From a virus (Duplodnaviria > Caudoviricetes): 64,000 bases of DNA. A program made the translations under genes and the position numbers. The notes beneath the pieces were generated by a model. It had not been told where the DNA came from. It worked only from the letters and a program-made list of their open reading frames with translations, and did no database searches. Below are positions 1 through 37,229 of the stretch, one piece after another. Location: the IMG/VR virus record IMGVR_UViG_2775506814_000001, positions 3,716 through 67,715 of that record; one strand, written 5' to 3'. Within the stretch, counting starts at the first letter, position 1. Each line of letters opens with the position of its first letter.

Positions 1-587
1 TTGCGTTTGCCCGGTGTTCGATGCACAAACCCCTTCAGGCGGCTAGCCTCATCGTAGATCAGGATTTTCCAACGCCAGCCCCTGTCCTGCCCGATCGTCT
101 CCCAAAGCCACGGCAGGTTCTCACGGTTGATGATCGTGAATTCCGCATCGCGTTTCAGGGCGGCCAGGCGCTGCGCTTCCGACCCGCAGACGACTGTGAA
201 TGTTGCATCGGCAAGGTGTTCCCACTCAGCCAATTCAGTCGGCCACGTCTCTTCCGCAACCGTCAACGGGGCAATGATGATGGTGCGCCACGTCAGTCGC
301 TTCTTCATCAGTCTGCGCGCACCGGTCAACGCCGCGGCCGTCTTGCCGAGGCTCATCTCGGCGGCGCCTAGGAGATACGGCATTGTGACGATGCGGTCGG
401 CGAGATAGCGCTGATAGGAGCGGAGCATGCTTTCCGGTCGGAGCCCCGAAGCCGGTGGTGCGATCCCTAGTAGTTGTTCAAGGAAAGCGGAAAGCGGAGT
501 CTCGACAGAGGGGGTCTCCGATACCTGCAGAACCGTGGAAAGGAGGCTCGCAAGAGGGCTGTCATCAATCGAACAGAGCACAGCCAT
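1..587 (-). CDS. SNF2-family helicase, N-terminal part (runs off the left window edge)
   Basis: Not in the ORF track because it has no stop in the window. Manual translation from ATG 587: MAVLCSIDDSPLASLL...MLRSYQ...AEMSLGKT (motif I)...IIAPLTVAEETW...ILIYDEAS (motif II). Directly follows VRR-NUC, as in Chi-like phages. Confidence 0.9.
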   Translation of the reverse strand, partial: MAVLCSIDDSPLASLLSTVLQVSETPSVETPLSAFLEQLLGIAPPASGLRPESMLRSYQRYLADRIVTMPYLLGAAEMSLGKTAAALTGARRLMKKRLTWRTIIIAPLTVAEETWPTELAEWEHLADATFTVVCGSEAQRLAALKRDAEFTIINRENLPWLWETIGQDRGWRWKILIYDEASRLKGFVHRTPGKR

Positions 588-834
588 CCTCGTAGTTGTC
601 GATCACATGGACATCGAGGCCGTATTCACGCAGCAACTTGATTTGGCGCATCTGCTGTTCATTCGGCTCTTTGCCAAAGTCCTTGAACTCGATAACGATG
701 GGGCGGCGCTTGCGCTTGAAGAACCAACTGTCCGGGCACCCGTTTCGCCCGATGAACTGCACGCGACGAGCCAGCCAGCCCTTTGACTTGGCGTAGGCCG
801 TAACCGGGTTCTGGACGTGCGGGATTTCCGCCAT
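565..834 (-). CDS. VRR-NUC domain nuclease
   Basis: GRNGCPD...VIEFK...Q signature; SD AAGGTGA upstream. Confidence 0.9.
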   Translation of the reverse strand: MAEIPHVQNPVTAYAKSKGWLARRVQFIGRNGCPDSWFFKRKRRPIVIEFKDFGKEPNEQQMRQIKLLREYGLDVHVIDNYEDGCALFD

Positions 835-2015
835 CAATCACCTTTTGGTTGATTTTCAAGACATAGTGAGAGCAGGATCTGAAGGGGACTCACAAGCTCG
901 TGCGTCGAGGCATGCTTCGATGAACGTGATCGCCTGCTCTGCAACGATCGCATTGCCATAACCCCGCAATAGTCCCACACGGGCGGGAGCCCCATGAGCC
1001 AACGGGGATGAGCCGGGTTCAACTGGCCGCCATCGTCCATCCCGGCAGAAGATCCAGTCAGCATCTCGCCACTGGCCGTTAACCGGGCCGGGCCGTCTGT
1101 CGTTCTCCATTGCAGCAGTTGTTGCGGTCCCATTTCGTCTTTTCTGTCCCCACCCCGACTCCTGAATTTGTCTGTTGTTGGCGTCTGCCAGCCTGCCAAC
1201 GTTGCCACGCGCGGCAACTGGTCCAACCGCGAGCGTGTCGACCCGTCCGGGTTCACGGCTGTTGTCGCCATGCCGGCTGTGTCCTTCCAGTCCCTCGCCG
1301 AGGCTGTCGGCCAACCTGCCAATGGAACCGTTTCCGAAAGACCCATCATTCCCGGTCTTGGGCTCACCGCACCCTGTTTGATCGCATCCGTGCTTGTGCA
1401 CGTCGGCCACCCGGCCAAGTGCGTCGCCTGTGCCGTCAATGTGTCCGCCACCCCTCGGCCATGGCGCATGCCCGCGCTCTCTGCGTCCTCCGCTTTCGGT
1501 GTTGCCCATCCTTTGCGAAACCCAGTAGAGCCGCTGGCGGATGTGCGGGGCGCCGACCCCCGCAGCGCAAAAATCGGCGGCCCCAACGGCATATCGTGCT
1601 GCCCATAGGTCAGCTTGTACAACGTTGAGCCAATACCTTCCGTCCTCGCTCGCAACCTGTTCCCCAAAGACGACTGGAGGTTTCCGCTCTCGGATAAGCC
1701 GTGAAAACTCAGGCCAAAGGTGTCGGCCGTCGGCATGGCGATCACATCCGCAATCGAGGCAGATGAAATGTCCGGTTTTGCGAGGGTGGCACAGATTACG
1801 TTTGCCACCACACGATGGGCATCGTTGTTTCTTGCCGGCCAACGAGAACGGCGGGCAGGGACATGACCCTGTCCAGACAGGGCGGTCGTCAGGCCACCCT
1901 GCGCATCGGAGGGCGTAGCTCCAGACGCCGACCCCGGCGAAGAAATGACACTGAGTAAATCCGTCCAGATCGTCCGGGCCAACATCCTCGATACTCCGCT
2001 CATCGACTTCGCCAT
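834..2015 (-). CDS. Alternative-frame C5 methyltransferase beta polypeptide (start uncertain, possibly about 1736)
   Basis: Four GW.T(P) repeats plus a motif-IX-like GQLNPAHPRWLMGLP; long open frame nested in the alpha gene. Confidence 0.7.
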   Translation of the reverse strand: MAKSMSGVSRMLARTIWTDLLSVISSPGSASGATPSDAQGGLTTALSGQGHVPARRSRWPARNNDAHRVVANVICATLAKPDISSASIADVIAMPTADTFGLSFHGLSESGNLQSSLGNRLRARTEGIGSTLYKLTYGQHDMPLGPPIFALRGSAPRTSASGSTGFRKGWATPKAEDAESAGMRHGRGVADTLTAQATHLAGWPTCTSTDAIKQGAVSPRPGMMGLSETVPLAGWPTASARDWKDTAGMATTAVNPDGSTRSRLDQLPRVATLAGWQTPTTDKFRSRGGDRKDEMGPQQLLQWRTTDGPARLTASGEMLTGSSAGMDDGGQLNPAHPRWLMGLPPVWDYCGVMAMRSLQSRRSRSSKHASTHELVSPLQILLSLCLENQPKGD

Positions 2016-2097
2016 CGGCGATGATACCGGCCCTGATCAGTTCCCTCAGCCAGGCTGCCGTCTTCGTGTCGTTCTCGTTGTAGTAGGCAAAACTCAT
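856..2097 (-). CDS. C5-cytosine DNA methyltransferase, large (alpha) polypeptide with Cys-rich insertion
   Basis: Motifs FFAGVG (I), PCPPFS (IV), GEQV (VI), PHIRQRLY (VIII), LRGYGNAIV (X); motif IX not visible in this frame. Confidence 0.9.
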   Translation of the reverse strand: MSFAYYNENDTKTAAWLRELIRAGIIADGEVDERSIEDVGPDDLDGFTQCHFFAGVGVWSYALRCAGWPDDRPVWTGSCPCPPFSLAGKKQRCPSCGGKRNLCHPRKTGHFICLDCGCDRHADGRHLWPEFSRLIRERKPPVVFGEQVASEDGRYWLNVVQADLWAARYAVGAADFCAAGVGAPHIRQRLYWVSQRMGNTESGGRRERGHAPWPRGGGHIDGTGDALGRVADVHKHGCDQTGCGEPKTGNDGSFGNGSIGRLADSLGEGLEGHSRHGDNSREPGRVDTLAVGPVAARGNVGRLADANNRQIQESGWGQKRRNGTATTAAMENDRRPGPVNGQWRDADWIFCRDGRWRPVEPGSSPLAHGAPARVGLLRGYGNAIVAEQAITFIEACLDARACESPSDPALTMS

Positions 2098-2354
2098 GTC
2101 TTAGCCCAATCAGGCCAGACATCTTCCGCAGCGCCGCCCGCAGCAACGAAGCCTCTGGCATACTGAAGCGCGGCGTCTGGATAGAGTGTGCCGCCGCAGC
2201 GCTCGCAAATGACTTTCTCGCGTGAAAGCGTGCCCAGATACGGCGACGAGATCCGATGAGCGTAACAGGACTCGAGACGTGCCACGTTTTGGCGCGCCTC
2301 CTCGATCTGCTCCATCAACTCGGCCTTGCTGATCGTCATTCTGAAATCAGGCAT
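2094..2354 (-). CDS. Hypothetical protein (CxxC)
   Basis: Overlaps both neighbouring genes. Confidence 0.7.
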   Translation of the reverse strand: MPDFRMTISKAELMEQIEEARQNVARLESCYAHRISSPYLGTLSREKVICERCGGTLYPDAALQYARGFVAAGGAAEDVWPDWAKT

Positions 2355-2706: not shown

Positions 2707-2743
2707 TTCGACACCACCAGTTGTTAAGTCACTATTTTGTTGA

Positions 2744-4864
2744 TTATATTGATGCGGCTGCGCCAACACCACCGCTTAATATCTGCGATAGAAACGCTTC
2801 CAAAGGGCAGTGATCTGGCGCGACCTTGGAAAGAAACTGCGACAGGAACGCCTCAAGAGGAGGCACGATGTAGCCGATTTCGGCAAGCATCGCGTATGCC
2901 TCGTCAATGTAGCGCTGGCGATCCAGATCATGAGGAACCGCGAAGTCCCGAGGCATTCGCATCAGAGGTGTCGAGCCATCTGACTTTGAGACCTTGTTGC
3001 GGTTGCCTGTCTTCGCGTGCGGCTTTCCGCGCATGATCGGTGCGCCGTCGGTCGACCAGTAAAAGCGAACTGTCTTGCCGAGATATTCACCCTTCCAGTC
3101 GGCGCCACCCTTCGCTTTTATGACGGTCACAAAACCCCGAACATCGTTATAGGAGTTGACGAAACTCTCGATCGACTGCCCCTTGGTCAGGAACGCCAAG
3201 ACGGCGTCGCCACAGACGGTCATCTTGGGGTTCTTTTTCAACTGCTCGCGGATGCTGTAATCCGGGGAGGACGGATCCCAATGGTTCGCGATTGCGCCTT
3301 TCCGCTTTGCCTTCCCATCCGGCTTGATCGCCACATAGTAGTTCACATCGCGGTTATAGATCGCTGCGTACTCCGCGCCTTCAAGGACGAAGCTGGTGCG
3401 CTGCTCCCACCATTCGATGATGTCCTTGAGGACGCCTCCGGCCGGCCGGTCTTTCCGCATGCCCTGATAGATCGAACGGGGCACCTTCATGACAATGCCG
3501 TCGGTATTCGCCGACACCACTCGAATGCCGTGCTTCTCGGCCCGCTCGATCAGCATCAGCAAAGTGAGCTGCCCGGTCAACGTGGTCGCGATCATCAGAT
3601 GCGGCGCATATAGGATGCTGTAGCGACTGCCGAGCTTGCCATACGGGCCGTTGAGACCGACTTTCAGACCGTCTGAGCGCTGCTTGTGATAGAGTTCGAG
3701 TTCGCGGTCACCCCTGTCTCGCGCAGCATTCGAACGCCCCTTTTCGGCCATGCGCTCGTCTTTGATCCCGCCATAGACCTTCTGGAATTTCGGGCCGACG
3801 GCCCTCGGATATAGACCGAGTTTCAGGATGATCGACGGGTACTGCGATCCCACGTCGACATCGACAAGTTGGCCTTCGGCATCCGAGAACTCAGCGCGGC
3901 ACTTCTCCTGTGAGTGCAGGCCGCCAATGCCGAGTTTGTAGGTCGCCCCGCCGATGGCGATCTTGAATTTCTTGAACTCCTCCGGAAACTTGACCGAACC
4001 CGTCGCTGTGACCTGGATATCGGTATTCCGGATTACGTTTAGGACATCGCGAAGAAGGGGTGTTTCAAACGCGATGAAGTCGGGAACCTGATAGCGGAAG
4101 GTGTAGGCGCCGCGGAACTCGGCTTTCTGAATTCGGCTGCCGGTGATGCGCTCGACACCGGTCTTGATCATGCGCTCGCCAGTTTGCGCGTCGGAAAGCG
4201 ACCGAGCGTCGAAGCCATAGAGTTCCCCGATAGATTCCCGGAGTTCCAGCATTTCCTTGCATGCATGAAAGAGCGCCAGGGTCGCGGGACAGTCCGAATT
4301 CAGGCAGTAGTCGGAAAGCTTGTCCATTTGATCGTGCGTGAGAACGGTCTCAGGCGCGTATGGGAGATCCTGAAGGCGTTCGGAATGGAGACGCCCGGCA
4401 AGCGTCTTGAGGCTCGCGCTTCCGGACGCGAACTGGTTTGAATCCAGTTCGTCTTCATCCCCCTCCGCTGTCTTCGAACCAACCGAGGGATTGGTGTCGA
4501 AAAGGTCGATATGATCGACATACGGCGGGACGATAATCCCGTAGTCGCGCTCGCAGTCCCACGGCTTCAACCGCTTCTTGATAATCGCGTCAGACAGTGC
4601 CTTAAGCTGTGTGTTCGTCGCTCCGGATATGGCATATAGCAGCATCATCATGTCATAGTCGCGGCTATTGAAGCCGACGAACGTGTATTTACGAAGAAGT
4701 TTCCGAACCCTCTGCGGATTAAAATCCGCTCTGTCACTACGTTCGTATGACGCGGTCTGACCGTCTTCTCGAAGAATGCCCACATAAAAGTAGTTTTCGT
4801 AGCATTCTATGTCGAATACTGCGATCGGTCTTTCTGTCTTAAAGCGTTCTGTTCTCGGCGCCAT
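2744..4864 (-). CDS. DNA polymerase, family B-like, with 3'-5' exonuclease domain
   Basis: FDIECY and GFNSRDYD (Exo I/II); DVGSQYP, KVGLNGPYGKLG, ANTDG polymerase motifs; start reassigned to ATG 4864. Confidence 0.9.
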   Translation of the reverse strand: MAPRTERFKTERPIAVFDIECYENYFYVGILREDGQTASYERSDRADFNPQRVRKLLRKYTFVGFNSRDYDMMMLLYAISGATNTQLKALSDAIIKKRLKPWDCERDYGIIVPPYVDHIDLFDTNPSVGSKTAEGDEDELDSNQFASGSASLKTLAGRLHSERLQDLPYAPETVLTHDQMDKLSDYCLNSDCPATLALFHACKEMLELRESIGELYGFDARSLSDAQTGERMIKTGVERITGSRIQKAEFRGAYTFRYQVPDFIAFETPLLRDVLNVIRNTDIQVTATGSVKFPEEFKKFKIAIGGATYKLGIGGLHSQEKCRAEFSDAEGQLVDVDVGSQYPSIILKLGLYPRAVGPKFQKVYGGIKDERMAEKGRSNAARDRGDRELELYHKQRSDGLKVGLNGPYGKLGSRYSILYAPHLMIATTLTGQLTLLMLIERAEKHGIRVVSANTDGIVMKVPRSIYQGMRKDRPAGGVLKDIIEWWEQRTSFVLEGAEYAAIYNRDVNYYVAIKPDGKAKRKGAIANHWDPSSPDYSIREQLKKNPKMTVCGDAVLAFLTKGQSIESFVNSYNDVRGFVTVIKAKGGADWKGEYLGKTVRFYWSTDGAPIMRGKPHAKTGNRNKVSKSDGSTPLMRMPRDFAVPHDLDRQRYIDEAYAMLAEIGYIVPPLEAFLSQFLSKVAPDHCPLEAFLSQILSGGVGAAASI

Positions 4865-4866
4865 CG

Positions 4867-5448
4867 TCAGATGTCGTAACGGTCTGCGTGCCGCGGGTTG
4901 GACGAACCGATGAGAAGCTGCCAGATTTCCGAGACCCACTGCGCCTGATGGAGCGCGTCAGCCAGCGCATTGTGCTTGGTGCCCGTGAAATCCGGAACCC
5001 GATAGCCCTTTGACTCGCCAAGTTCACGAATCGTGCGGCAGTCGCGCACCAACCAGAAATTCCACGGTATTGGGGCATTAGGGCCGAGCACACGATAATA
5101 GGCGTGCTCAAGGATCGTGATGTCGAAATGTGGGCCATTGCCCCAGATCGGGGCCTCCCGATCCAACGACAGGAACGCACTAAGCTTCCCGAGCACCTGC
5201 TCAAGCGGCAGCTTACCGGCAACAGCGTCATGGCGCGCGGCGTCGCTTTGTTTCATCCACCATGCCAGGGTGCGCCCCTCGATAAGCCCGTAGCGAAGCG
5301 CGCTATCCAGATCGACGGTCTCGTAGAACTCTTTCCTGAGTTCACCTGTTGAAGGGCGGAAGAAGCAGGCACCGACGGCAATAACCGGTGCGTTGAACCG
5401 CGTTCCCAACGTCTCGATATCAAGCATGCAATGAACGTCACCCATCAC
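4867..5448 (-). CDS. DEDDh 3'-5' exonuclease (DUF5051/Rv2179c-like)
   Basis: MLDIETLG, WGNGPHFD, RDCRT, HNALADA. Confidence 0.9.
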   Translation of the reverse strand: MMGDVHCMLDIETLGTRFNAPVIAVGACFFRPSTGELRKEFYETVDLDSALRYGLIEGRTLAWWMKQSDAARHDAVAGKLPLEQVLGKLSAFLSLDREAPIWGNGPHFDITILEHAYYRVLGPNAPIPWNFWLVRDCRTIRELGESKGYRVPDFTGTKHNALADALHQAQWVSEIWQLLIGSSNPRHADRYDI

Positions 5449-7543: not shown

Positions 7544-7759
7544 TCAGCCCAACCGTCTGCGTCGTCTGGCGCGAAATCGTTTCCGTGCCTTGTGAGACAG
7601 ATGATATTTCCCGCAGAACCCGCACTTGAAAGTCCCGCAGCCCTTGTGGCTCTTGTTTTCAATCCGACGTGCAACCTTCTTCGCTGTCGCATAGTCGTCA
7701 AAGCCGAATTTGCCTTCGCAGGCTGCGGGCTGGCTGCAGTCAAAGGTTCTCGATGACAT
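7544..7759 (-). CDS. Small basic Zn-finger protein
   Basis: C.GK.GF...FKCGFCGKYHL. Confidence 0.65.
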   Translation of the reverse strand: MSSRTFDCSQPAACEGKFGFDDYATAKKVARRIENKSHKGCGTFKCGFCGKYHLSHKARKRFRARRRRRLG

Positions 7760-8027
7760 ACCAGTCTGCCGCCATGATATCAGCTTGAGACAGTTCGTAT
7801 CCGACCACGCATTCGAGCCCCGTGTCGCTCACGAAGACCGCGTCGATGTGGTCACGTGTCCTGAAGACACATCCCTTTCCGAGATGGGTCACCATCGGCT
7901 CGAATGATGCCTGCACTTCACGCCCAGGCATGAAGACGAGAAATTCAGGATTGCGCTTTGGATGCCAGATGCGACGCGCCACGGCGCTACCCGTTCGCAT
8001 TGTCTCCAGTGCGGCCTGAAAGTTCAT
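7740..8027 (-). CDS. DUF2829 / Tad2-like anti-Thoeris protein
   Basis: MNF..AL....G..VAR..W ... SQADIMAADW family signature. Confidence 0.8.
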   Translation of the reverse strand: MNFQAALETMRTGSAVARRIWHPKRNPEFLVFMPGREVQASFEPMVTHLGKGCVFRTRDHIDAVFVSDTGLECVVGYELSQADIMAADWYVIENL

Positions 8028-8121
8028 GTGAGCCTCCGTGAGGGCATTGAGGAAACGGGCATCGCCCGCTTTCTGAATGCCCCCGGCCAACTGTAAGAGC
8101 TGGCCGGGAACATGAAACGGC

Positions 8122-8580
8122 TCACATGCCGTCGTCATCGCCCTCGTCATCGTCGGACGGCTCGGGGGTCAGGCGGCCTTCCTCCTTCTTCTTCTTGACC
8201 CATGCCACGACACGGTGAAGCTCGGCGGCCGGGACATCCGTGATGGTCGCATCCTGCTTCTTCAGCATCGCAGCGAGCGCCTTCTTGAGCGCGGCAGAGC
8301 GGGCCTGCGGCTCGGGGTCCTTCTCGTTGTCCTCGAACTCGGAGATCCACTCCAGAGCGAAGTCCTTGACCTCCTGGTGGGTCGGGCCGTCGTCGGACTC
8401 CTTCGTCGAGGCCGACTTCCGGCTGCGCGTCGTCTTGGCGGGCTTGTCGTCGGAATCATCACCGCTGGACTTGGTCGAGGCCGCCTTCCCACCGGACGCC
8501 GCGGCGAGCAGCTTTTCCAGGAGGCTGTTGTTGCGTTCCAGAAGCTCGTTGTTGGTCTGCAGAAGCTCTTCGAGTGCCAT
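8122..8580 (-). CDS. Hypothetical protein (coiled-coil N-terminus, disordered linker, acidic tail)
   Basis: SD AAGGA upstream; first gene of the leftward replication operon. Confidence 0.8.
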   Translation of the reverse strand: MALEELLQTNNELLERNNSLLEKLLAAASGGKAASTKSSGDDSDDKPAKTTRSRKSASTKESDDGPTHQEVKDFALEWISEFEDNEKDPEPQARSAALKKALAAMLKKQDATITDVPAAELHRVVAWVKKKKEEGRLTPEPSDDDEGDDDGM

Positions 8581-8738
8581 TGCGGTTCCTTTCAGGGTGA
8601 CATGGCGTTTCACAGCGTGTGCGCCGAAGCGCGGGCACTGACTTGATCACACATCTCGGTTGTCTGGTCAACTAAATATTGACTAAACGAGCGGCGGACC
8701 GTAGCTTGCACGAACGACGCAAGCACAGAGGATTCCAC

Positions 8739-9091: not shown

Positions 9092-11614
9092 ATGCTCGAC
9101 TCCATTCGACAGCTCTGTGAAGAAGGTTTTGCCATTCACTGGCTGTATCCGCGTGCCAAAAACCCGATCGGTGACGATTGGGCCGCAAAGCCCGTGGCGA
9201 GCTTCGAAAAGCTCAAGCGATCGTACCGGCAGGGGATGAACGTTGGCGTCCGCCTGGGCAAGTGGTCGAGGATCGGCGACCTCTATCTGCACGTCATAGA
9301 CCTCGACATCCGCGACGCGTCACTGAGCGATGAGGCACGCGCCGAACTGCGCAAGATGATCAGCGAATTTGAGGATCTGCCGTCGGTCATTTCCGGGTCA
9401 GGCGGCGAAAGCCGTCATTACTATTTTCTGTCCGAAGAGGCTTTCCCGCCGAAAAAGCTTGCGCATAGCGCCGGTAAGGTCCTGGGCAAAGATGACAAGA
9501 AGCATTGGGCGTGGGAGATCGAGCTTTTCGGCACCGGCAAGCAGGTCGCGATCCCGCCGTCGATCCACCCCGATACCGGCAAGCGCTATCGTTGGGAGCG
9601 TGAGATCGACTTCGATGCGATCATTCTCGGTGTCGGCCCGGTCGTCGAAGCTGATCGCATTCGCGAACTCATCGGGCGCGAGCGCGAGATCGACATCCAG
9701 AGCGGCGACGGCGAGGATCGTTCGAAACCGCTTGGACTGACGGTCAGCGAAATCCAGCACACGTTGAAGGGGCTGCCGGTTGAATACTGGCGGGACGATA
9801 GGGAAGGGTGGTTGACCGTCGGATTTGCCATCCACCACGAGACCGGTGGCAGCCAGGAGGGATTTCAGCTCTGGCGCGACTTTTCGGCATCGTCGGACAA
9901 GTTCGACACATCTGATCAACGGCGCGTCTGGAAATCATTCCGGAACAAACCCCGGCCGATCCGCATGGCGACGCTCATGACGGCGGCGCGCGAAGCCAGG
10001 CTTGAGGCCGAATTCGAGAACCTCGACGATGCCGAAGACGACGAAGATGACTTCGATGATCTCGACCGGCCGGCAAAGCCAAAACCCAAAAAGCCGGACT
10101 ATTCGTCTGTCCTCGGAGGACCGCGCGACGCGGAGCCCGAGGAAGAGGATGACGCAGACGACTCAGACGACGAGGACGTTCCGCCTCGTGTCGTAAAACT
10201 GCGAAAGGCGGACGTTGAAGCCGAGCTTGGACATGTGCCGCCGAAGGTCAAGCGCATGAACGCCAAGCATGCAATTGCCTTCGTCAAGGGCAAATGCGTG
10301 ATCATCACCGAGCACGACGACGGAACAACCTCCTACGGCACACAGGCCGACCTCCACGCCTGGTATGAGAACGACCGTGTCGCGACGGAAAAGAGCACGG
10401 AACCGGTTTCCAAGGCGTGGATGCGCCACAAGAAGCGGCGAGACTACCCGAACGGCGTCGTCTTCGCGCCAGGTCGCGACGTTGCCGGCGCCTATAACCA
10501 TTGGAAGGGTTTCTCGGTCATCCCGAACAACAAGTACTCGTGCGCGCTATGGCTCGCCCATCTTCGGGATGTGATCTGCAGCGGAGACGAGACCAACTAT
10601 CGCTATGCGCTCGGGTGGTTTGCGCATCTGGTCCAGCGGCCGGAAGAAAAGCCCGGTGTCGCGATGATCCTGCGCGGCAAGAAGCGGATCGGCAAGGATA
10701 CGATCGCTGACTACTTCGCCAACATCATCACGCACCATCGCGTCAAAATCGCGAACCAGGACCAGTTGGTTGGGAAGTTCAACGCCCATCAGGAAAAGTG
10801 TCTCTTCCTCCATGTCGAGGAAGGCTTCTGGGCTGGTAACAAGAACGCCGACGGCGTTCTCAAGAACCTGATCACCAGCGAGCAGGTGCTAATCGAGCCG
10901 AAGGGTATCAACCCCTTCAACGTCGACAGCTGTCTACGCCTCTTCATGTCCTCGAACGAAGAATGGATCGTGCCTGCGACCGCGGATGAAGGGCGCTATT
11001 TCGTGCTCGATGTCTCGGAGGCGCGACGCAACGATCACGTCTATTTCGCCGCTCTCCGCAAGGAGATGAAGAACGGCGGCCCGGAAGCACTGCTCTGGTA
11101 TCTGCAGCACTACGACATTAGCGATTTCCAGGTGCGCAAGGTGCCGAACACAGCGGCCCTGACGCAGCAGAAGCTGGCAGGACTCAAGAACCTCGACCGC
11201 TGGTGGTTCGAAATGCTGGACACGGCCGATCTGTCGTTCGAGCACTACGTGGCTGGAGGCAGGACCGCCGACTGGTCATCGGACCACGTGCATGTTGACC
11301 GTGACGACCTGTTCGACTCCTACAATCGCTGGATCCACGGGCGCCGCTACGATGGCGACGCACTGAGTGGGCCTCTGCTCGGCAAGCGTCTGCAGGAGAT
11401 CATCGGCGACAAGTTGCAGGCCTGCTACCCGCGCCGCGGCAAGTCGCGCATCCGCCAATACATCATCCCGCCATTGGAGATCTGCCGGCGCGCGTTCGAG
11501 CGTTATCTGAACTCGGAGATCAAATGGGATGTCCCCGCCAAGGTCGTCGATGCTGACGAGCTGGACGAGGACATGGATGACGAATACGACGATCTCGATC
11601 AGGACAAAATGTGA
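9092..11614 (+). CDS. Primase-polymerase / PriCT-2 / DUF5906 NTPase (primase-helicase)
   Basis: Prim-pol (VIDLD, HYYF, VAIPPSIHPDTG), PriCT-2 (WLTVGFAIHH), Walker A GKKRIGKD. Confidence 0.92.
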   Translation: MLDSIRQLCEEGFAIHWLYPRAKNPIGDDWAAKPVASFEKLKRSYRQGMNVGVRLGKWSRIGDLYLHVIDLDIRDASLSDEARAELRKMISEFEDLPSVISGSGGESRHYYFLSEEAFPPKKLAHSAGKVLGKDDKKHWAWEIELFGTGKQVAIPPSIHPDTGKRYRWEREIDFDAIILGVGPVVEADRIRELIGREREIDIQSGDGEDRSKPLGLTVSEIQHTLKGLPVEYWRDDREGWLTVGFAIHHETGGSQEGFQLWRDFSASSDKFDTSDQRRVWKSFRNKPRPIRMATLMTAAREARLEAEFENLDDAEDDEDDFDDLDRPAKPKPKKPDYSSVLGGPRDAEPEEEDDADDSDDEDVPPRVVKLRKADVEAELGHVPPKVKRMNAKHAIAFVKGKCVIITEHDDGTTSYGTQADLHAWYENDRVATEKSTEPVSKAWMRHKKRRDYPNGVVFAPGRDVAGAYNHWKGFSVIPNNKYSCALWLAHLRDVICSGDETNYRYALGWFAHLVQRPEEKPGVAMILRGKKRIGKDTIADYFANIITHHRVKIANQDQLVGKFNAHQEKCLFLHVEEGFWAGNKNADGVLKNLITSEQVLIEPKGINPFNVDSCLRLFMSSNEEWIVPATADEGRYFVLDVSEARRNDHVYFAALRKEMKNGGPEALLWYLQHYDISDFQVRKVPNTAALTQQKLAGLKNLDRWWFEMLDTADLSFEHYVAGGRTADWSSDHVHVDRDDLFDSYNRWIHGRRYDGDALSGPLLGKRLQEIIGDKLQACYPRRGKSRIRQYIIPPLEICRRAFERYLNSEIKWDVPAKVVDADELDEDMDDEYDDLDQDKM

Positions 11615-13729: not shown

Positions 13730-14155
13730 GACTATGCCGGGATTACACACTGTTCGGGGGTCCGAACAGTGCGACCACTCTGCGATGGACCCTCTCGGGA
13801 GATGATTACCCGACGTATCCCGAGACCGTCAGAACCACCGCATTCCGTGTTGCCCATACGGGCGAAACTGACGATCGGCGGTAAGCGCTCCACATACCGT
13901 TGCCGCACGCTTTGTTGGTTGCTCCATAGCCGCCGCGTGCACCGATCTTTCAGGCGGGACGGTCGGAAGTCCTACTAAGACGGTACGTGAAAAGGAGGTC
14001 GATCCCCACGTACCCAACCGACCGTTGACCCCACTCCTGAACCCGCTGTTGCGACAGAAACACCGGTTCCCCGGAATTCCGCCCGCCGTGCTGTCAGGCC
14101 CTTGGCCGCTCCAGCGGGTGTCCGCACACTCGCAACAACTGTCACGACCATAGTC
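13730..14155 (-). ncRNA. Candidate large structured ncRNA upstream of tRNA-Lys
   Basis: Closing stem 14149-14155/13730-13736 and nine nested 6-10 bp stems (see findings). Confidence 0.55.
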
Positions 14156-15667: not shown

Positions 15668-15937
15668 GTGACCGCAATCCCTCCCGCCCATACTCTCTTT
15701 GACCGCGCAAAGGCACGTCTCAACGGGCGCACGTTCTATGCTGGCGAGACCTGCCCTGCAGGCCATGACGGCGCCCGCTATGTCGCCAACCGGCTTTGCG
15801 CGCATTGCGCCAAGGCAAAGAGCCGCGCCCGCTATCGGGCCGATCCTGCAGCGGACAACGCGGCACGGTCGGCGCGTCGACGTGCTAAGTTCGAACCGTG
15901 TCCGCTGGCGCGTTTTGTCGCCGAACTGATCAACTAA
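15668..15937 (+). CDS. Early small Zn-binding protein (C..GH...C..C)
   Basis: FYAGETCPAGHDGARYVANRLCAHC. Confidence 0.7.
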   Translation: MTAIPPAHTLFDRAKARLNGRTFYAGETCPAGHDGARYVANRLCAHCAKAKSRARYRADPAADNAARSARRRAKFEPCPLARFVAELIN

Positions 15938-19951: not shown

Positions 19952-21154
19952 ATGCAAGAGCAAATCTCATTATCCGGCAAAGCCGGAATTCCGACGCGAT
20001 ACCTAAACCGGCATTGCCTGATCACGGGCGCCACGGGAACGGGGAAGACGGTTTCGTTAATGCGGCTTGCCGAGCAATGCGCACGGCAAGGCATTCCCGT
20101 TTTTACGGCCGATATCAAGGGCGACCTGTCAGCGCTTGCCCGTTCATGCATGGTGCGCTTTCTGGATCCGTTCGGGCAGGGGAAGGGCGACGCGGTTGCC
20201 GTTCCTGTTGCCAGTTTCGGAGCGCCAGCGCTTGCCCGCATTTGCGGCTTGTCGCCTATCCAGTCCGACGCGTTGGCAATCGTGTTTCAGGTCGCGGGCG
20301 CCATCGGCGCGCCCCTTGAAACGTTGAGCGACTTGCGCGCCGTTCTTCGGACCATGGGCACAACAGCTGGATTGAGGGACTCCGACTTCGGCCACGTGTC
20401 GCGCGGCACAATCGGCATTCTGCAGCGGACCGTCACGGCGCTTGAGACTGACGGCGCGGCTTCACTGTTCCGCGCACCCTGTTTCGACGTGGCGGACCTA
20501 TTGGCGCCTCGCGTTTCCGTCCTCACGGCGGATCGGCTGATTCAATCCCCGCGCACCTATGCGGCTTTCCTGTTCTGGCTGTTGTCGGACCTTTACGAAC
20601 GGTTGCCGGAAGTCGGCGACCTGGACGCGCCCCGCCTGGTTTTCATTTTCGACGAAGCGCATTTGCTTTTTGAGGACGCGCCGCGCGCCCTGGTCGACAA
20701 GCTGGCGCAAATGGCAAGGCTGATCAGGTCCAAGGGCGTTGGCGTTGTCTTTGCCTCGCAATCCGCCGACGACATACCCGACACCATCCGCGCGCAGCTG
20801 GCGACGCGGATTGAGCATAGCCGGGAATTGCCGATTGGCACGGCGCGGGTCCGCACGTTGGATCAAGCCGGCCGGCCGGTTGATGCGGGCGCCGTCCCAA
20901 TCGATATGCCGGATTGCCCACTAGGTGCCCTTGAGGAGGGCGAGCGCCCCATGCCCGCGCCGATTGATCAGGCGGACACGCCCCGCGCCCCATGGGCGGC
21001 TATGGGCAAGAGCGAGGCCGCGCTATTGGGCGTCATCCTCGCGCTAGTCGGCGCGGCGGGATTCGGTGCCTTGACGGCATGGCAAAGCGGATCGGCCGGC
21101 AAGCTTGCCGTGATCGCGGTTGCCATCATTGCGGCGGGGTTGGCGCGCCGCTAA
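19952..21154 (+). CDS. HerA/DUF853 (YjgR-like) P-loop ATPase with two C-terminal TM helices
   Basis: NRHCLITGATGTGKT, ADIKGDLS, LPEVGD, FIFDEAHLLF, RLIRSKGVGV. Confidence 0.85.
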   Translation: MQEQISLSGKAGIPTRYLNRHCLITGATGTGKTVSLMRLAEQCARQGIPVFTADIKGDLSALARSCMVRFLDPFGQGKGDAVAVPVASFGAPALARICGLSPIQSDALAIVFQVAGAIGAPLETLSDLRAVLRTMGTTAGLRDSDFGHVSRGTIGILQRTVTALETDGAASLFRAPCFDVADLLAPRVSVLTADRLIQSPRTYAAFLFWLLSDLYERLPEVGDLDAPRLVFIFDEAHLLFEDAPRALVDKLAQMARLIRSKGVGVVFASQSADDIPDTIRAQLATRIEHSRELPIGTARVRTLDQAGRPVDAGAVPIDMPDCPLGALEEGERPMPAPIDQADTPRAPWAAMGKSEAALLGVILALVGAAGFGALTAWQSGSAGKLAVIAVAIIAAGLARR

Positions 21155-22654: not shown

Positions 22655-23296
22655 GTGGCATCCGAATCCGAAAACCCGCCAAACAGGAAGGTCGGATACG
22701 CCCGCGTTTCGACGAGCGAGCAGAACCCGGACATGCAGATCGCGGCGCTCAAGGCCTATGGTGTCCCGGAGGCGTTGATCTTCGTCGACAAGGCGAGCGG
22801 CGGCACGATGCAGCGCCCGGAATTCATCAAGGCGGTTCGGGTCTGCCAGGTCGAAAAGACCGAGTTTGTGGTCTGGAAGCTCGACCGTCTCGGGCGCACC
22901 CTCGGCGGCATACTTGAGACGCTGGAACTGCTGACCGATCGCGGGATCGAGTTCGTCAGTCTGACGGAGCGGATCGACACCAAAGGCCCGATGGGCAAGG
23001 CGATGGTGCGATTGCTTGCCGTGTTCGCCGAGCTGGAGCGCGACCTGATCCGCGAGCGCACGAAGGCGGGCATCGAGCGGGCGAAAGAGCGCGGTGAACA
23101 CGGCGGCCGGCCGCGAGCGATGACGGACGAGCGGATCGCCAAGGCTGTGGAGATGTTGGCGACCGGCGAGCGCGGCAACGCGATCTGGAAGGCGCTCAAG
23201 GGTTTGCCTGGGCCGAAGATCAGCCGCTCGGCCTATTATGCCTGGCAGCAGGAATGGGATGTCGAGAACCGCTCGCCCGATACGGTCGGCGAGTAG
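22655..23296 (+). CDS. Serine recombinase (resolvase/invertase)
   Basis: GYARVST, VVWKLDRLGR, AELERDLIRERT.AG, GRP, C-terminal HTH. Confidence 0.95.
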   Translation: MASESENPPNRKVGYARVSTSEQNPDMQIAALKAYGVPEALIFVDKASGGTMQRPEFIKAVRVCQVEKTEFVVWKLDRLGRTLGGILETLELLTDRGIEFVSLTERIDTKGPMGKAMVRLLAVFAELERDLIRERTKAGIERAKERGEHGGRPRAMTDERIAKAVEMLATGERGNAIWKALKGLPGPKISRSAYYAWQQEWDVENRSPDTVGE

Positions 23297-24829: not shown

Positions 24830-25444
24830 TTGCGAAACTTATATGACGTTCTCGGCATCTCGCGAGATGCGACGACCGAGGACATTCAAAAGGCAAAACG
24901 GCGCCTTGCGAGAGCGACCCATCCAGATGTGGCGGGTGGCAGCAAGGAAGCTTTCCAGGCTGTGGAAGAAGCCGCTCGCGTTCTTGGTGACCCCGAAACC
25001 CGTCTGCTCTACGACGCCACCGGCCACACCCCGCATGACGGCCTGGATGAGGCGGCAGAGGGTATCGTCTGGGCCGAGGTCGGGAAGGCCATGATGTCGT
25101 CGGACAAGCCGGAAAGGCTCGATATTGTCGGGCTTGCCCGCAACTCGATCAGTGACACGATTCAGACGGCGCGGAGCAACATCAAAAAATTGACGGCTGC
25201 CAAGGTGAACGCTGCCCGGATGGCCGGCAGGTTCAGAACCTCGCTGCCGAACGACCCGATCGCGCAGCGTTTCGCCAAGATCCAGCGCGACGCCGATGCC
25301 GAGATCGAGTCGACCAAAGCCAAGATTAAGGTATTCGAACGGGCCTTGCAGATCGCCGAGGCCTACGAATTTGAGCGCGAGCCGACCCCCTCAGCCACAG
25401 CATGCGATGGGTGGGTCTTTGTCCAAACGCCGAGGACGTGGTGA
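24830..25444 (+). CDS. J-domain (DnaJ-like) protein
   Basis: LYDVLGISRDAT.EDI.KA.RRLA...HPD...F..V.EA..VL.DP..R..YD. Confidence 0.9.
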   Translation: MRNLYDVLGISRDATTEDIQKAKRRLARATHPDVAGGSKEAFQAVEEAARVLGDPETRLLYDATGHTPHDGLDEAAEGIVWAEVGKAMMSSDKPERLDIVGLARNSISDTIQTARSNIKKLTAAKVNAARMAGRFRTSLPNDPIAQRFAKIQRDADAEIESTKAKIKVFERALQIAEAYEFEREPTPSATACDGWVFVQTPRTW

Positions 25445-32636: not shown

Positions 32637-32721
32637 ATCAAGATTGCCTTAATCCCTTTTTTGTTGACCACGTTCAGATAATCAACTAAATGTTGACTAA
32701 CTGATTTGGAGGGACGCGGTC

Positions 32722-33098: not shown

Positions 33099-33116
33099 AT
33101 TCACAGGAGAAGCCCG

Positions 33117-33962
33117 ATGGCGAAGCAGGGCGGCATCAAGGATGTCGCGGTCGGACGGTCTGATTTCTATCAGATGGACCCGGCAGATCTTCATATCAAG
33201 GACGGCTGGAACTGCCGTAACCTTGACACAGTGGAGGCCAGGGCGTCGCTCGACTCCCTTGCACTCTCGATTGCCGAGGTCGGCGTCAAGCAGGCGCTGA
33301 CCGTCTGTTGGGAGGACGGCAAGGCGTTCGTCACGGACGGTCATCGCCGGTTGTTGGCGACTCGGCTTGCGATGGAGCGGGGCGCCGAAATCCGCTCCAT
33401 CCCGGTGCAGACCGAAGGACGTTTCTCGTCAGAAGCCGACCGCGTTTTCTCGATGGTGGTGCGCAACAGCGGCGAGCCGCTTCTGCCGATCGAGATGGCT
33501 CGCGTCTTCAAGCGTCTGATCGACTTTGGCTGGACCGAGAGCGAGATTGCCAGCAAGGCGGGGCTCAACCGCCAATATGTCGTCTCGTTGCTCCAGCTTC
33601 AGGCCGCGCCGTCCCAGGTGACCGACCTCGTCGACAAGGGCGAGGTTGCCGCGACACTGGCCGTTTCCGTGATGAAGGCCAACAAGGGCGACATGACCGC
33701 CACGGCCGAGACGCTGAACAAGGCGGTCGAGACGGCTAAGGCTGCCGGCAAGGCCCGAGCCACGGCCAAGCACGTCGAGACGACTGACCGCAAGCCGAAG
33801 GGGCCGGGCAAGGTAGCCACGTTCCTGCTCGCCAACTCGTCGGTCGATACCGGTGACGACGAGAGCGCCGTCTATCTGCGCATGGACATCGCTCGGTATC
33901 GCGAGTTCTGCGCCATGCTCGATATCGATGAGCGTCTGCCCTCGGACGGCGACGAGATGTAA
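33117..33962 (+). CDS. ParB-like domain protein
   Basis: SIAEVGVKQAL, VTDGHRRL, HTH GWTESEIASKAG. Confidence 0.88.
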   Translation: MAKQGGIKDVAVGRSDFYQMDPADLHIKDGWNCRNLDTVEARASLDSLALSIAEVGVKQALTVCWEDGKAFVTDGHRRLLATRLAMERGAEIRSIPVQTEGRFSSEADRVFSMVVRNSGEPLLPIEMARVFKRLIDFGWTESEIASKAGLNRQYVVSLLQLQAAPSQVTDLVDKGEVAATLAVSVMKANKGDMTATAETLNKAVETAKAAGKARATAKHVETTDRKPKGPGKVATFLLANSSVDTGDDESAVYLRMDIARYREFCAMLDIDERLPSDGDEM

Positions 33963-33991
33963 CGGGTTCAAATTCAACAAAAAGGTGAACT

Positions 33992-34509: not shown

Positions 34510-34729
34510 GCAGGCCCTTGCCGATGTCGAGAGCAGGGGCTTGCTCGTCCACTACCTGGTCTTCGGCGATGACAACCACTGGCGCTGCACGCTCCGCAAG
34601 CGGGGAGGTGACTGGGTGCTCAGGAGAGCAGGCGGGCAGACCGGTTATGTTCTGCGCGGGCAGGGCAGGACGCCGACGCAGGCGATCACGAACGCCCTGA
34701 AAAAGGATCACTCGGACGTGCTCGGATGA
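34499..34729 (+). CDS. Hypothetical protein ending in DHSDVLG
   Basis: Coupled ORF. Confidence 0.7.
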   Translation: MTFEQALADVESRGLLVHYLVFGDDNHWRCTLRKRGGDWVLRRAGGQTGYVLRGQGRTPTQAITNALKKDHSDVLG

Positions 34730-34971
34730 ACGAACTCGAAACCCTCCTGCGCCGCGAGGCGCGTGCCGGCAACATCAGTCACCTGAGCATCGCGTTCAGG
34801 GGAGGCCAGTTCGAGGCCGTTTACCGCGGAACGGACGATCCCGTTTACGCCATCGGTCGCGCTCCCGATATCTGCGACGCCATCACGAAGGCCCTTCGGG
34901 ATGGCCGGAAGTTGTCACAACCGAAACCCAAAAAGGCGGCACGTGGCCGCTATTCAGATGTGTTGGGGTGA
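34726..34971 (+). CDS. Hypothetical protein ending in RYSDVLG
   Basis: ATGA-coupled ORF. Confidence 0.75.
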   Translation: MNELETLLRREARAGNISHLSIAFRGGQFEAVYRGTDDPVYAIGRAPDICDAITKALRDGRKLSQPKPKKAARGRYSDVLG

Positions 34972-34974
34972 GCC

Positions 34975-35274
34975 ATGGGAATGTTTCAGCAAGTTGAGGG
35001 TGAGTGTGCCACCATCGTTCGCAAGGGGCGCTATAAGCAGGTGCCCGTCTATACGCGCGATGGCTATATCTTCGCCAAGGAAGGGGGATGTTTCATCAGG
35101 CTCTATGCGGACGGGTCGACCAGTGACCCGAACTATCGCTTGGACAATCTACCGTGGGAAGGGCCGTTAGCGCGGAACAAGTTCGGTAAACTTGTCGACC
35201 CGCGCGTGGTCAAGGACAGCCTGTCATTGCCGGATGAAAACAAGACACTCCTGCTGTTTGGCCCATCCGAATGA
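34975..35274 (+). CDS. Conserved phage protein
   Basis: GRYKQVPVY.RDGYIFAK.GG.FIRL..DGSTS.P. Confidence 0.75.
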   Translation: MGMFQQVEGECATIVRKGRYKQVPVYTRDGYIFAKEGGCFIRLYADGSTSDPNYRLDNLPWEGPLARNKFGKLVDPRVVKDSLSLPDENKTLLLFGPSE

Positions 35275-35696
35275 CCCGGTTCTTCGCTCACCCGGAAAGC
35301 GACTGTCTGTTCGCCCTGCGCGACGGCGAAGACCCGCCAACAGACGGGCTTGTCGAAGAAGTCACGCCGGCAGACTTCTTCGAACTCGCATGCCGTGGCG
35401 ACGCCGACCGCGCTGTCTCAACTCTACTCAATGCCATGTTGCAGTCAGGCCGTTTTGATGGGCTCACCTTTTGGCGTTGGAAAAGCGGCAAGGCGACGAT
35501 TTCGCTGCGGCGGGAAGGTACGTCGAACGCCTTCAACTGCAGCCAGAGATTACACCCCAATGATCCCCCATCTCTGCAGCTCTATGCCTTCCTGCGTGAG
35601 ACATTTCGGCACGAGTTCATCCGGAACGAAGTCGTCGCGCCACACCCCAAGTCAGCCCCCGCCGCCCGCAAATCGAGGTTCGAAGACACTATCTGA
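35271..35696 (+). CDS. Hypothetical protein
   Basis: HPESDC motif; coupled ORF. Confidence 0.7.
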   Translation: MTRFFAHPESDCLFALRDGEDPPTDGLVEEVTPADFFELACRGDADRAVSTLLNAMLQSGRFDGLTFWRWKSGKATISLRREGTSNAFNCSQRLHPNDPPSLQLYAFLRETFRHEFIRNEVVAPHPKSAPAARKSRFEDTI

Positions 35697-36958
35697 TGAT
35701 CACGCTCCATGAAGGCGACAGCCGTAAAATCCTTTGCCAGATGATCGACCGCGGCGAGCGCGTTCATTCGGTCGTCTGCGACCCACCTTATGGTCTGACC
35801 AGCATCGAGAAGCGTTTCGGGAAGGACGGCGCCGCGCCGGCCCGCAGCGAGAAGAACGACGGCAGTTTCGGCCGTATATCGAAAGGCTTCCTCGGAATGA
35901 AGTGGGACGGCACTGGAATCGAACGCGACCCCGAGTTCTGGCGCCTCGTCTTTGAGGTTCTGTTGCCGGGCGGCTATGTCTTCGCCTTCTCGGGCGCCCG
36001 CACCGGCCACTGGCAGGCCTGCGCCATGGAGATGGCCGGATTTATCATGCATCCGATGCACGCGTGGGTCTATTTCCAAGGGTTCCCGAAGGCGCACGCG
36101 GCCGACAAGGCGATCGACAAGCATCTCGGCAAGAAAGGGTCCGTCGTTCCGAGCGGCAACCCGGTCAAGCGGATGATCCCTGGCGCCGACCAGGTCGCTA
36201 CCGGGTCATGGGAGAAGAACAACGGGCGGACCTACCAGCCGGGCATTTACGAGCCCGCGACGGACGAGGCGGTCGAGTGGTCGGGCTATGCCTACGGGAC
36301 ACAGGCCCAGAAGCCTGCCCTTGAACCCATCTTCCTCGGCCAGAAGCCATTCGATACCAAGAACGGGGCAGCCAACCTCCTCAGGCACGGCGTGGGCGCT
36401 GTAAACATCGACGGGTGTCGTGTGCCCGGTGGACGCTACCCGTCAAACCTTCTTCTCGATGGGTCGCCTGAAGTCGTTGCTATGTTCCCGCGCGAAGCGG
36501 GGGCCTCGGCACCGGTTAAGGGAACTGAGCCGTCATCGGTGACCAAAGACATTTATGGAAAATTCAATGGGCGCGTTCCGGGCACCTTCTTCAATGACAG
36601 CGGCTCGGCCGCGCGCTTCTTCCATCATTTCCCGCTCGATACGGACCCGCTTATCTGCAACCCGAAGGCCGGCAAGAAGGATCGGGCCGGAACGGACCAT
36701 CCGACCGTCAAGCCGATCAAGCTGCTGCGCTATCTGATCCGCCACATCACGCCGCCAGGCGGGACGGTGCTCGACATGTTTGCCGGCAGCGGCACGACAG
36801 GCCAGGCCGCGATCGAGGAAGGGGTACGCGCCGTGCTGATCGAAATGGACCCCGGCTACAGCGCCTTCATCCGTCGGCGCTTCGGCTTGGCGTCGAGAAG
36901 ACGTGACTACAGCGACGTGCTCGGCCCGGCTTCGCGCTACGCCGATGTGCTCGGGTGA
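35696..36958 (+). CDS. N6-adenine/N4-cytosine DNA methyltransferase (beta class)
   Basis: DPPY, HPTVKP, VLDMFAGSGTTG. Confidence 0.92.
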   Translation: MITLHEGDSRKILCQMIDRGERVHSVVCDPPYGLTSIEKRFGKDGAAPARSEKNDGSFGRISKGFLGMKWDGTGIERDPEFWRLVFEVLLPGGYVFAFSGARTGHWQACAMEMAGFIMHPMHAWVYFQGFPKAHAADKAIDKHLGKKGSVVPSGNPVKRMIPGADQVATGSWEKNNGRTYQPGIYEPATDEAVEWSGYAYGTQAQKPALEPIFLGQKPFDTKNGAANLLRHGVGAVNIDGCRVPGGRYPSNLLLDGSPEVVAMFPREAGASAPVKGTEPSSVTKDIYGKFNGRVPGTFFNDSGSAARFFHHFPLDTDPLICNPKAGKKDRAGTDHPTVKPIKLLRYLIRHITPPGGTVLDMFAGSGTTGQAAIEEGVRAVLIEMDPGYSAFIRRRFGLASRRRDYSDVLGPASRYADVLG

Positions 36959-36962
36959 TGCC

Positions 36963-37229
36963 ATGTCGACGGCTAGCGTTGAGACCACGGCATCGGAGAA
37001 CTGGCCTGTAGGGCTCACAGCTATCTTGCTTGACCCGTGGTTCAGGAACCCTGTGAAAATCAGGATCCGGCGCCATCCGAATGCCGATCACATCGTCGGC
37101 GAGGATGCAAGAGGGGTCGTCTATTACGCGAGAACCGACAGACTGAGGGAATGCGAGCAGCCGATCGTACCGCCGTGCCCGCTTGAACTGTTCCTCAGTG
37201 ATCTTCTCGCTCGCTCTCCATGTGCCTGA
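36963..37229 (+). CDS. Hypothetical protein ending in CPLELFLSDLL
   Basis: ATG 36963 directly after the methylase. Confidence 0.6.
   Translation: MSTASVETTASENWPVGLTAILLDPWFRNPVKIRIRRHPNADHIVGEDARGVVYYARTDRLRECEQPIVPPCPLELFLSDLLARSPCA

Follow-up and report, generated by a model that had tools for sequence, protein, structure and literature searches.

Clamp-binding motifs and the tails of single-stranded DNA-binding proteins (SSBs) gather enzymes on one hub and organize cellular replisomes. The bacterial β-clamp motif follows the consensus Gln-Leu-[Ser/Asp]-Leu-Phe or Gln-Leu-x-Leu-x-Leu, the PCNA-interacting protein (PIP) box reads Gln-x-x-[Leu/Ile/Met]-x-x-[Phe/Tyr]-[Phe/Tyr], and in T4 the gp45-binding tails sit on gp43, gp33, and gp55. 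A PIP-type sequence, QxxIxxFF, is quoted in PMC3201878, and DNA polymerase α is described as binding primase through a hydrophobic motif at its extreme C-terminus (Kilkenny et al. 2012, PMC3390648). Here, we analyzed a 64,000-nucleotide stretch of caudoviral DNA (positions 3,716 to 67,715 of IMG/VR record IMGVR_UViG_2775506814_000001; hereafter the window), which is a prophage at G000:C1:768052-832051, and in which a short, putatively helical peptide, the helix tag, recurs at the ends of several proteins, among them enzymes of a replication module without a detectable clamp gene. The tag comprises 11–14 residues of the form [ST]-P-hydrophobic-x-x-FL-x-x-LL. We propose that it serves as a portable short linear docking peptide for what would be a shared partner at the replication fork, a reading to which we assign a probability of roughly 0.6.

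As in polymerase α, the tag on the family-B DNA polymerase of the window is a hydrophobic motif on an unstructured tail after the last ordered helix. In polymerase α, the tail tethers an archaeo-eukaryotic-type primase, i.e., another replisome enzyme, and in yeast it ends in ...SIFDFMLN. Many relatives of the window polymerase end in ...LQIN, ...LKIN, or ...LLVN, and the tag often closes with Gly or Gln followed by a hydrophobic residue, which in the SNF2 proteins takes the form LG[LFY]. Unlike the polymerase α motif, the tag is shared with DNA-modifying enzymes and an SNF2 motor, may stand at either terminus, and occurs in tandem; no sequence homology is claimed. Sliding-clamp motifs are likewise short terminal peptides on flexible ends of the polymerase and other DNA enzymes, docking on one hub being a feature of the clamps, and the Leu-x-x-Phe-Leu core of the tag loosely resembles the Leu-x-x-Phe-Phe core of the PIP box. 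The tag differs, however, in its lack of Gln, in its length, and in being predicted to be helical with caps; relative to the PIP box, Gln is missing from the position three residues ahead of the Leu, and Leu or Val takes the place of the second aromatic residue. The acidic tails of SSBs (the E. coli SSB tip and T7 gp2.5) show the same hub-and-tail logic of replisome assembly (PMC5686142), and acidic SSB-like tails are found here on the gp2.5-type SSB, a Cas4-like nuclease, and a small protein encoded from position 8122. In contrast to these, the helix tag is not acidic and needs no free C-terminus. Comparable docking peptides for clamp-less phage replisomes with PrimPol, family-B polymerase, SNF2, and VRR-NUC were not found in the literature searched, which did not cover subscription journals and supplements.

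The original prediction had listed seven tag peptides in the window, and translation reproduced every one of them (Table 1). They share the Ser/Thr-Pro at the start and hydrophobic residues at positions 3, 6, 7, 10, and 11, a pattern that reads as one capped amphipathic helix with Ser/Thr-Pro as the N-cap. The regular expression used for that prediction gives nine six-frame matches, the additional two lying in short alternate-frame open reading frames (ORFs) at 39425-39457 and 14019-14051. The tails of the window proteins end in ...AAASI, ...QPKGD, ...ELIN, and ...SPCA. Both polymerase copies contain PLEAFLSQ, yet five synonymous positions differ between them; since the copies differ at synonymous codon positions, the tag is conserved as a peptide and not as a DNA repeat. 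A DNA repeat or regulatory site was ruled out, as the codons differ from copy to copy.

Table 1. Positions of the helix tags in the window, the proteins that carry them, and related genes
Feature	Position	Strand	Details
SNF2 N-terminal extension	428..587	-	Full protein 525 residues, G000:C1:767061-768638
Tag, SNF2 N-terminus no. 1, SPLASLLSTVL	528..560	-	Matrix 18.0 bits; AF2 helix 11-20, pLDDT ~71
Tag, SNF2 N-terminus no. 2, TPLSAFLEQLL	468..500	-	Matrix 21.5 bits; AF2 helix 31-40, pLDDT ~77
C5 cytosine methylase, main frame A (α)	856..2097	-	PF00145 5.7e-7; phrog_363 1.6e-68; no tag in the window
Methylase, alternate frame B	834..2015	-	phrog_31772 1e-29; phrog_1008 2.4e-23
Tag, methylase frame-B C-terminus, SPLQILLSLCL	858..890	-	17.3 bits, matrix trained on polymerase and SNF2 homologues only
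Family-B DNA polymerase	2744..4939	-	phrog_1252 3.9e-174, residues 29-690 of 731
Tag, polymerase C-tail no. 1, PPLEAFLSQFL	2831..2863	-	15.7 bits; AF2 helix 670-681 of 706-residue model, pLDDT ~58-60
Tag, polymerase C-tail no. 2, CPLEAFLSQIL	2777..2809	-	18.3 bits; AF2 helix 687-697, pLDDT ~60-62
Primase-polymerase / D5-type helicase	9092..11614	+	Pfam Prim-Pol, PriCT_2, DUF5906; without helix tag
Small protein of 89 residues (ORF 15668)	15668..15937	+	Cys/His-rich domain at residues ~13-60; phrog_1081 3e-8
Tag, ORF 15668 C-terminus, CPLARFVAELI	15899..15931	+	Two residues before stop codon
Small protein directly after N6-methylase gene (ORF 36963)	36963..37229	+	Longer ORF from GTG 36903
Tag, ORF 36963 C-terminus, CPLELFLSDLL	37176..37208	+	Matrix 14.5 bits

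For an estimate of chance occurrence, a 14-column scoring matrix was derived from 108 unique instances in polymerase C-tails (P0002-P0120) and SNF2 N-termini (P0122-P0240), and proteins of the window itself were left out of the training set against circularity. These external instances follow the pattern P-hydrophobic-x-x-hydrophobic-hydrophobic-x-x-hydrophobic-hydrophobic. Six window copies score from 21.5 down to 14.5 bits (Table 1) and the next best six-frame match reaches 12.6 bits; the copy in ORF 15668 is cut by the stop codon and scores 14.3 bits over 13 columns. In the host chromosome outside the prophage (10.5 million six-frame positions), there are 21 matches at ≥14.5 bits and 11 at ≥16 bits, which gives an expectation for the window of 0.26 and 0.13, respectively, against five and four observed. 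Over both contigs, six of the 30 matches at ≥14.4 bits fall in the prophage, all at most 35 residues from an ORF end, and the remainder are mostly internal or in short ORFs. Chance or low complexity was ruled out by the externally trained matrix together with this background.

The tags were predicted to be appended outside the catalytic domains, and this is borne out by family profiles, structure models, and the ORF 15668 family. The phrog_1252 profile ends at residue 690 of 731 in the polymerase, and the Pfam SNF2 profile begins at residue 75. Homologues of ORF 15668 align over residues ~13–60 only, and the tag is found in one of 150 representatives, namely the protein of the window. AlphaFold2 (AF2) models built with family alignments have a mean predicted local distance difference test (pLDDT) score of 92.5 for the SNF2 protein, where the segments that join the tag helices score 44–55, and of 91.3 for the polymerase, where the two tag helices follow the last confident helix and pLDDT drops from >90 in the body to ~60 in the tail. 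Because helices and linkers are of low confidence, the tags would be located on flexible tails and are not confidently packed on their own protein. An ordinary domain helix was ruled out: the family profiles stop short of the tags, and in distant homologues the tail is different or absent. Within the polymerase body, the final conserved helix, at 2880-2930(-) and with the sequence ...YIDEAYAMLAEIGY... (E-A-x-x-[IM]-L-x-[DE]-[IL]-G-[YFW]), resembles the SNF2 tags of some genomes, for instance YTILKDIGY compared with YTLLEVLGY; this may be chance, or the tags may mimic that helix.

Gene models matter for recognition of the tags. The SNF2 protein starts at ATG 587 or, more likely, at GTG 581, a choice favored because the resulting N-terminus, MLCSIDDSPL, agrees with the homologue N-termini MLCS[TI][DE]SP, and because an SD-like (Shine-Dalgarno-like) GAGG is found at 592-589. 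The database model of this protein (P0121, 472 residues) begins at Met54 and so omits both tags. For the polymerase, the database model has 706 residues, which by arithmetic puts the start probably at 4864; its PDB profile matches are family-B polymerases, E. coli Pol II among them.

Among relatives, the polymerase and SNF2 tags are not the lineage-specific addition that had been supposed, but are widespread in the family of this replication module. With a strict pattern, 33 of 119 polymerase homologues carry the tag within their 45 C-terminal residues, and 51 of 119 SNF2 homologues carry it ahead of the helicase core, 25 of them twice, with the second copy 30–45 residues in; a looser pattern recovers 46 of 120 polymerases, the window protein counted. 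The nearest named phage is Rhizobium phage RHph_X2_30, with 73% identity in the polymerase. The original regular expression, even when loosened, finds nothing at the gene ends of this phage; read by eye at the termini, the same three positions hold HFERFLNLAL, PFERFLEQVL, and PFERFLRDVF, the polymerase ending in ...THFERFLNLALKVN and the SNF2 protein starting with MLTTLTPFERFLEQVL...SPFERFLRDVFL. A search with the polymerase alone as query returned no related loci in genome contigs, and the 401 genomes of the order that were searched hold two distant copies besides that in the genome of the window. In a few relatives (L016 3188-3934, P0136, P0144, and P0177), the SNF2 protein keeps its N-terminal tags and has a Mom-like or AP2/HNH-like domain inserted before the helicase core.

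Tags from the same contig tend to be alike, as in PLEVLYRRAGL with PLARLYARAGL and PLVKLYRRLGL, or NPMRRLITRAL with SPMHRLLRRIG. This was quantified in 34 de-duplicated genomes through the best 9-mer match between polymerase tail and SNF2 N-terminus, which averages 21.4 for the SNF2 protein of the same genome compared with 16.9 for those of other genomes (permutation p ~1e-4). In the 63 unique loci with both ends complete, the tag is on both proteins in five, on SNF2 only in seven, on the polymerase only in none, and 51 loci lack it on either protein; as the loci are kin, the Fisher p of 1e-4 for this co-occurrence overstates the case. A third class of tail, ...RLTKAN....L..WALAA, is seen on polymerases P0060-P0120, and in loci L009, L025, L105, and L106, where it occurs, the SNF2 protein is untagged and the alternate frame of the methylase gene ends in ...LIWLIAA or ...LIWLLAA. 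This end resembles the Leu-Ala-Ala end of the ssrA tag.

A family-blind scan of 10,264 unique ORFs of at least 60 residues, drawn from 160 related loci, the prophage, and three named phages, gave 39 matches at ≥15 bits, of which 25 lie no more than 70 residues from the N-terminus, 11 no more than 35 from the C-terminus, and three are internal. SNF2 proteins account for 20 and polymerases for six, counts that depend on the training set; the 13 found elsewhere are independent of it. The latter include the alternate C5-methylase frame of four genomes, a Dam-like protein with a DPPY motif and a weak methylase match (phrog_56, 1.1e-5) in L013 that ends in DDSPYALIINQMLNNVQS next to a polymerase ending in DDSPYALIINQVLNVQS, and a DpdA-like (queuine-tRNA-ribosyltransferase-like) protein in L094/L014 (phrog_1279 1.5e-65) that ends in RVSPFELIINSMLI. 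These clients act enzymatically on DNA, in agreement with an address at the fork. A word-index search with ORF 36963 found no homologue.

The C5-methylase locus bears on the tag in a different way. In M.EcoHK31I, a β chain with motif IX is encoded in another frame inside the α gene (PMC2836561). In enzymes of this type, α holds motifs I–VIII and X. The window locus is similar in that a second frame is located inside the methylase gene; each of the two frames is open and conserved in all 14 relatives and has PHROG matches. The putative catalytic motifs are in the main frame, and a conserved ...LNPAHSRWLMGLPPEWD... block is found in the alternate frame. We take this block to be a putative motif IX, and FAGxG, PCxxFS, and GNAIV in frame A and RWLMGLPPxW in frame B were picked by eye as the presumed methylase motifs; the Pfam match in frame A covers residues 123–200 only. 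Starting near codon 27 of frame A, frame B runs through to its end without a stop in all 14 relatives, and a frame-B ATG before the conserved block ...GQLNPAHSRWLMGLPPEWD... is kept in 10 of them; in the window this codon is at 1040-1038 and would give a β product of 68 residues ending in the tag. Substitutions by codon position are frame-A-like over A codons 1–150 and 376–420, frame-B-like over ~256–315 and 361–375, and uniformly low over 346–360, with all three codon positions low around the RWLMGLPPEW / RVGRLRGYGNA block. Frame B stops at TGA (836-834), which shares a nucleotide with the VRR-NUC ATG (834-832), an arrangement typical of genes that may be translationally coupled, and the main-frame stop is 22 nucleotides upstream. 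Unlike in M.EcoHK31I, the open stretch of the alternate frame spans almost the entire gene, this frame appears constrained in the middle too, and the α and β chains terminate in address tags of different types.

The frame-B tails resemble the polymerase tail of their own genome: in 12 genomes, the match to the own polymerase tail is 15.75, compared with 12.3 to those of others (p = 0.004), and the own tail is first in six. Examples of such pairs (polymerase / frame B) are ALDLYLSSF / PLQLYLKTF, ...LLEWLRAA / ...HLIWLLAA, and ...AAWSAVG / ...MIWALIG. It had been argued that the presence of the tag supports translation of the alternate methylase frame, and the likeness to the own polymerase tail strengthens this, pointing to probable translation of frame B up to its stop. 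Frame A of the relatives ends in a tag of a second type in nine of 14 cases (...FEDVLG, ...FSELLG, ...FADLLG, ...FDDLLG), and in L012 and L119 both tags are written on overlapping nucleotides. As judged from sequence, the C5-methylase gene appears to be dual-coding, and it fits an M.EcoHK31I-like α/β enzyme.

The second tag, R-Y-[SA]-D-V-L-G, has six copies in the window, located at the C-terminus of ORF 34726-34971 (34951-34968(+)), twice at the C-terminus of the N6-methylase (36908-36925(+) and 36938-36955(+)), at the N-termini of the portal (59153-59170(-)) and the small terminase (62152-62169(-)), and in an acidic linker of the PrimPol protein (10100-10117(+), DYSSVLGG). It resembles acidic SSB-type tails, and the SSB of the window ends in ...RSFDDI. 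The linker motif (EFDDVLGG, EFDDILGT, EFDDLLGG, and others) is present in 12 of the 17 PrimPol homologues that match the pattern, the other five matches, ~570–590 residues in, being taken as unrelated; the second tag is therefore not confined to packaging proteins. The original prediction saw two addressing classes, with no protein carrying both tags. A check of all window copies agrees with the latter statement; the division into classes is less strict than supposed, as orthologues swap tags and the PrimPol protein carries the YSDVLG-type motif. For example, where ORF 36903 has the helix tag, its RHph_X2_30 homologue (E 3e-20) has DDFADILG at the end, a weak homologue of ORF 15668 (E 1.8e-4) ends in AGFDDVLG, and the DpdA-like protein ends in EFSDVLG in RHph_X2_30 and has the helix tag in L094. 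A search for second-tag strings in the literature gave one match, which was unrelated, and neither tag is described in the literature searched.

From these observations, one might tentatively picture two orthogonal peptide address codes that are exchanged between orthologous enzymes in this phage family. The helix tag would mark the polymerase, the SNF2 motor, the methylase β chain, and the Dam-like and DpdA-like enzymes, and the acidic [FY]-x-D-[VIL]-L-G peptide would mark the PrimPol linker, portal, small terminase, methylase α chain, N6-methylase, DpdA-like enzymes, and small proteins. The overlapping frames of the methylase gene would then address its chains differently, and exchangeable docking peptides, in place of dedicated domains, would link DNA modification to synthesis and perhaps also to packaging. 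We regard this wider picture as possible but doubtful.

For the helix tag itself, its existence, non-randomness, position, predicted helicity, conservation, and co-variation within genomes are established, and the module and its DNA-acting clients are real. In the docking mechanism that we propose, the clients in clamp-less phage modules would be the polymerase, the SNF2 translocase, the C5-methylase β chain, the Dam-like methylase, and the DpdA-like transglycosylase, with the two small proteins as additional tagged candidates in this prophage. All would bind the same groove on one fork partner, for which tandem copies would add avidity if the partner is oligomeric, and synthesis, fork remodeling, and DNA modification would then act on the same nascent DNA. 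Polymerase relatives encoded beside a clamp have short tails, some with clamp-motif-like ends, so that in this polymerase family the C-tail looks like the binding place of a processivity or coupling partner. The marked variation of the tag between phages, together with its co-variation within genomes, leans toward a partner encoded by the phage. By analogy with the polymerase α tail, and because the tag is absent from it alone among the core replisome enzymes, the phage PrimPol-helicase is our first candidate for this partner, although a tentative one; the host β clamp comes second and is the less probable of the two.

If the proposal is correct, the tag would be a handle for finding the hub of a widespread replication module, and a sequence rule by which more clients could be spotted among small proteins of unknown function. 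It would account for the arrival of phage methylases and 7-deazaguanine enzymes at nascent DNA in time to evade restriction, and two gene models would be corrected, namely the SNF2 start and the methylase β chain. The exchange of tags, together with the encoding of a pair of tags in different frames of a single gene, would be an unusual case of modular rewiring by linear motifs in viruses.

Several results weigh against the docking proposal. Co-occurrence singled out no receptor gene, since every candidate is shared across the clade. The same module is found untagged in many relatives, so that the tag is dispensable for it. In the co-variation test, the own SNF2 partner is first in only seven of 34 genomes (top three in 13) and in the lower half in many, and the co-variation could also arise by copying between genes within a genome. 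The generic matrix recognizes the tag at the frame-B end in only five of 14 relatives (background 19 of 2,626 ORFs of at least 150 residues), the rest being matched through likeness to their own polymerase tail. Finally, none of the seven window copies fits the β-clamp consensus.

The last point also bears on an alternative in which the tag is an unusual helical motif for the host β sliding clamp, used as a tool belt by a phage without a clamp of its own. Pfam and PHROG scans, and phmmer with the phage 73 clamp, detected no clamp gene in the prophage, and the host genome holds one dnaN. The list of clients (polymerase, methylases, and SNF2 motor) resembles that of cellular clamps. The polymerase belongs to family B with an NTDG active-site motif, a PolII-like phage subgroup, and such polymerases often bind clamps via a short C-terminal motif (PMC3201878). 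Moreover, 41 unique polymerase relatives encoded beside a polIII-beta-like clamp (e.g., phage 73 gp027) have short tails, some ending in AALSFF, AALFF, or KLF. Their module is a different one, in which SNF2, VRR-NUC, and PrimPol of this type were not detected. A capped helix of 11–14 residues without the Gln-Leu-x-Leu-Phe pattern is difficult to reconcile with the clamp, however, and the tag varies greatly between phages, whereas DnaN is 52–80% identical across the order with many invariant columns. We therefore consider this alternative unlikely. The clamp of Pseudomonas phage 73 (L008, 23625-26830) itself ends in ...EDDIPF, like an SSB tip, and the host DinB has the C-terminal sequence ...ETGLVFES..., from which no conclusion is drawn.

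Short terminal amphipathic helices in tandem could also target membranes, as do the tails of MinD and FtsA, and would then place the enzymes at the inner membrane. Many relatives indeed have Arg or Lys on the polar face, e.g., SPMHRLLRRIG and NPMRRLITRALQIN. The window copies are neutral to acidic (Glu, Ser, Gln, Asp), however, with no Lys and a single Arg in the ORF 15668 copy, and the polar-face residues are identical in the two polymerase copies despite their synonymous divergence. Together with the co-variation within genomes, the conserved Ser/Thr-Pro cap points to a specific protein site, and membrane targeting seems less likely, to the point of being improbable. Less probable again is mutual binding of the helices in small bundles, which would cluster the enzymes without a separate receptor: the likeness of tags within a genome, the frequent second copy in SNF2 (25 of 119), the co-occurrence of polymerase and SNF2 tags, and the lack of a receptor gene that stands out would all agree with it, but helices of eleven residues are short for a stable bundle, AF2 gives no confident packing of two copies (pLDDT 55–77 for SNF2 and 58–62 for the polymerase), and several relatives have one copy per protein. 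A role as degradation or remodeling signal for host AAA+ proteases (ClpXP or Lon) that times enzyme lifetime, suggested by the one class of relatives with ...WALAA, ...LIWLIAA, ...LLAA, or ...RVAA ends on polymerase and methylase frame B and by the Leu-Ala-Ala C-terminus of the ssrA tag, is very improbable, since the window tails do not end in Ala-Ala, the SNF2 tag is N-terminal with a second copy 30–45 residues in, and tandem copies and helix caps are not features of such degrons.

Returning to the setting of the helix tag, the prophage has its integrase at the right end. Its lambda-type portal and terminase genes, like those for the tape measure and tail, fall within 38–62 kb of the window. 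The replication module occupies the minus strand at 1–12 kb, with the PrimPol / D5-type helicase on the plus strand. Its order is SNF2 ATPase (cut by the window start), VRR-NUC nuclease, C5 methylase, family-B polymerase, DnaQ-like exonuclease, T7 gp2.5 / Enc34-type SSB, Cas4-like DUF2800 nuclease, and PrimPol / D5-type helicase; the same module is known from Nazgul-like and Enc34 phages (PMC5686142). Between the Cas4-like nuclease and PrimPol genes, the gene at 8122-8613(-) is kept and encodes a protein of 152–163 residues with an N-terminal helix (MSLE..L....N.LL.K.L), a Lys/Ser/Asp-rich linker, a small helical part, and an acidic tail with a hydrophobic last residue. Its protein atlas entry reads viral hypothetical protein and nothing more, and a role as organizer or hub is possible. 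Accessory genes at 7740-8150(-), 19952-21154(+), 22655-23293(+), 24830-25444(+), and 33117-33962(+) encode a Tad2-like (anti-Thoeris) domain protein, a HerA-like ATPase, a serine resolvase, a J-domain protein, and a ParB-like protein.

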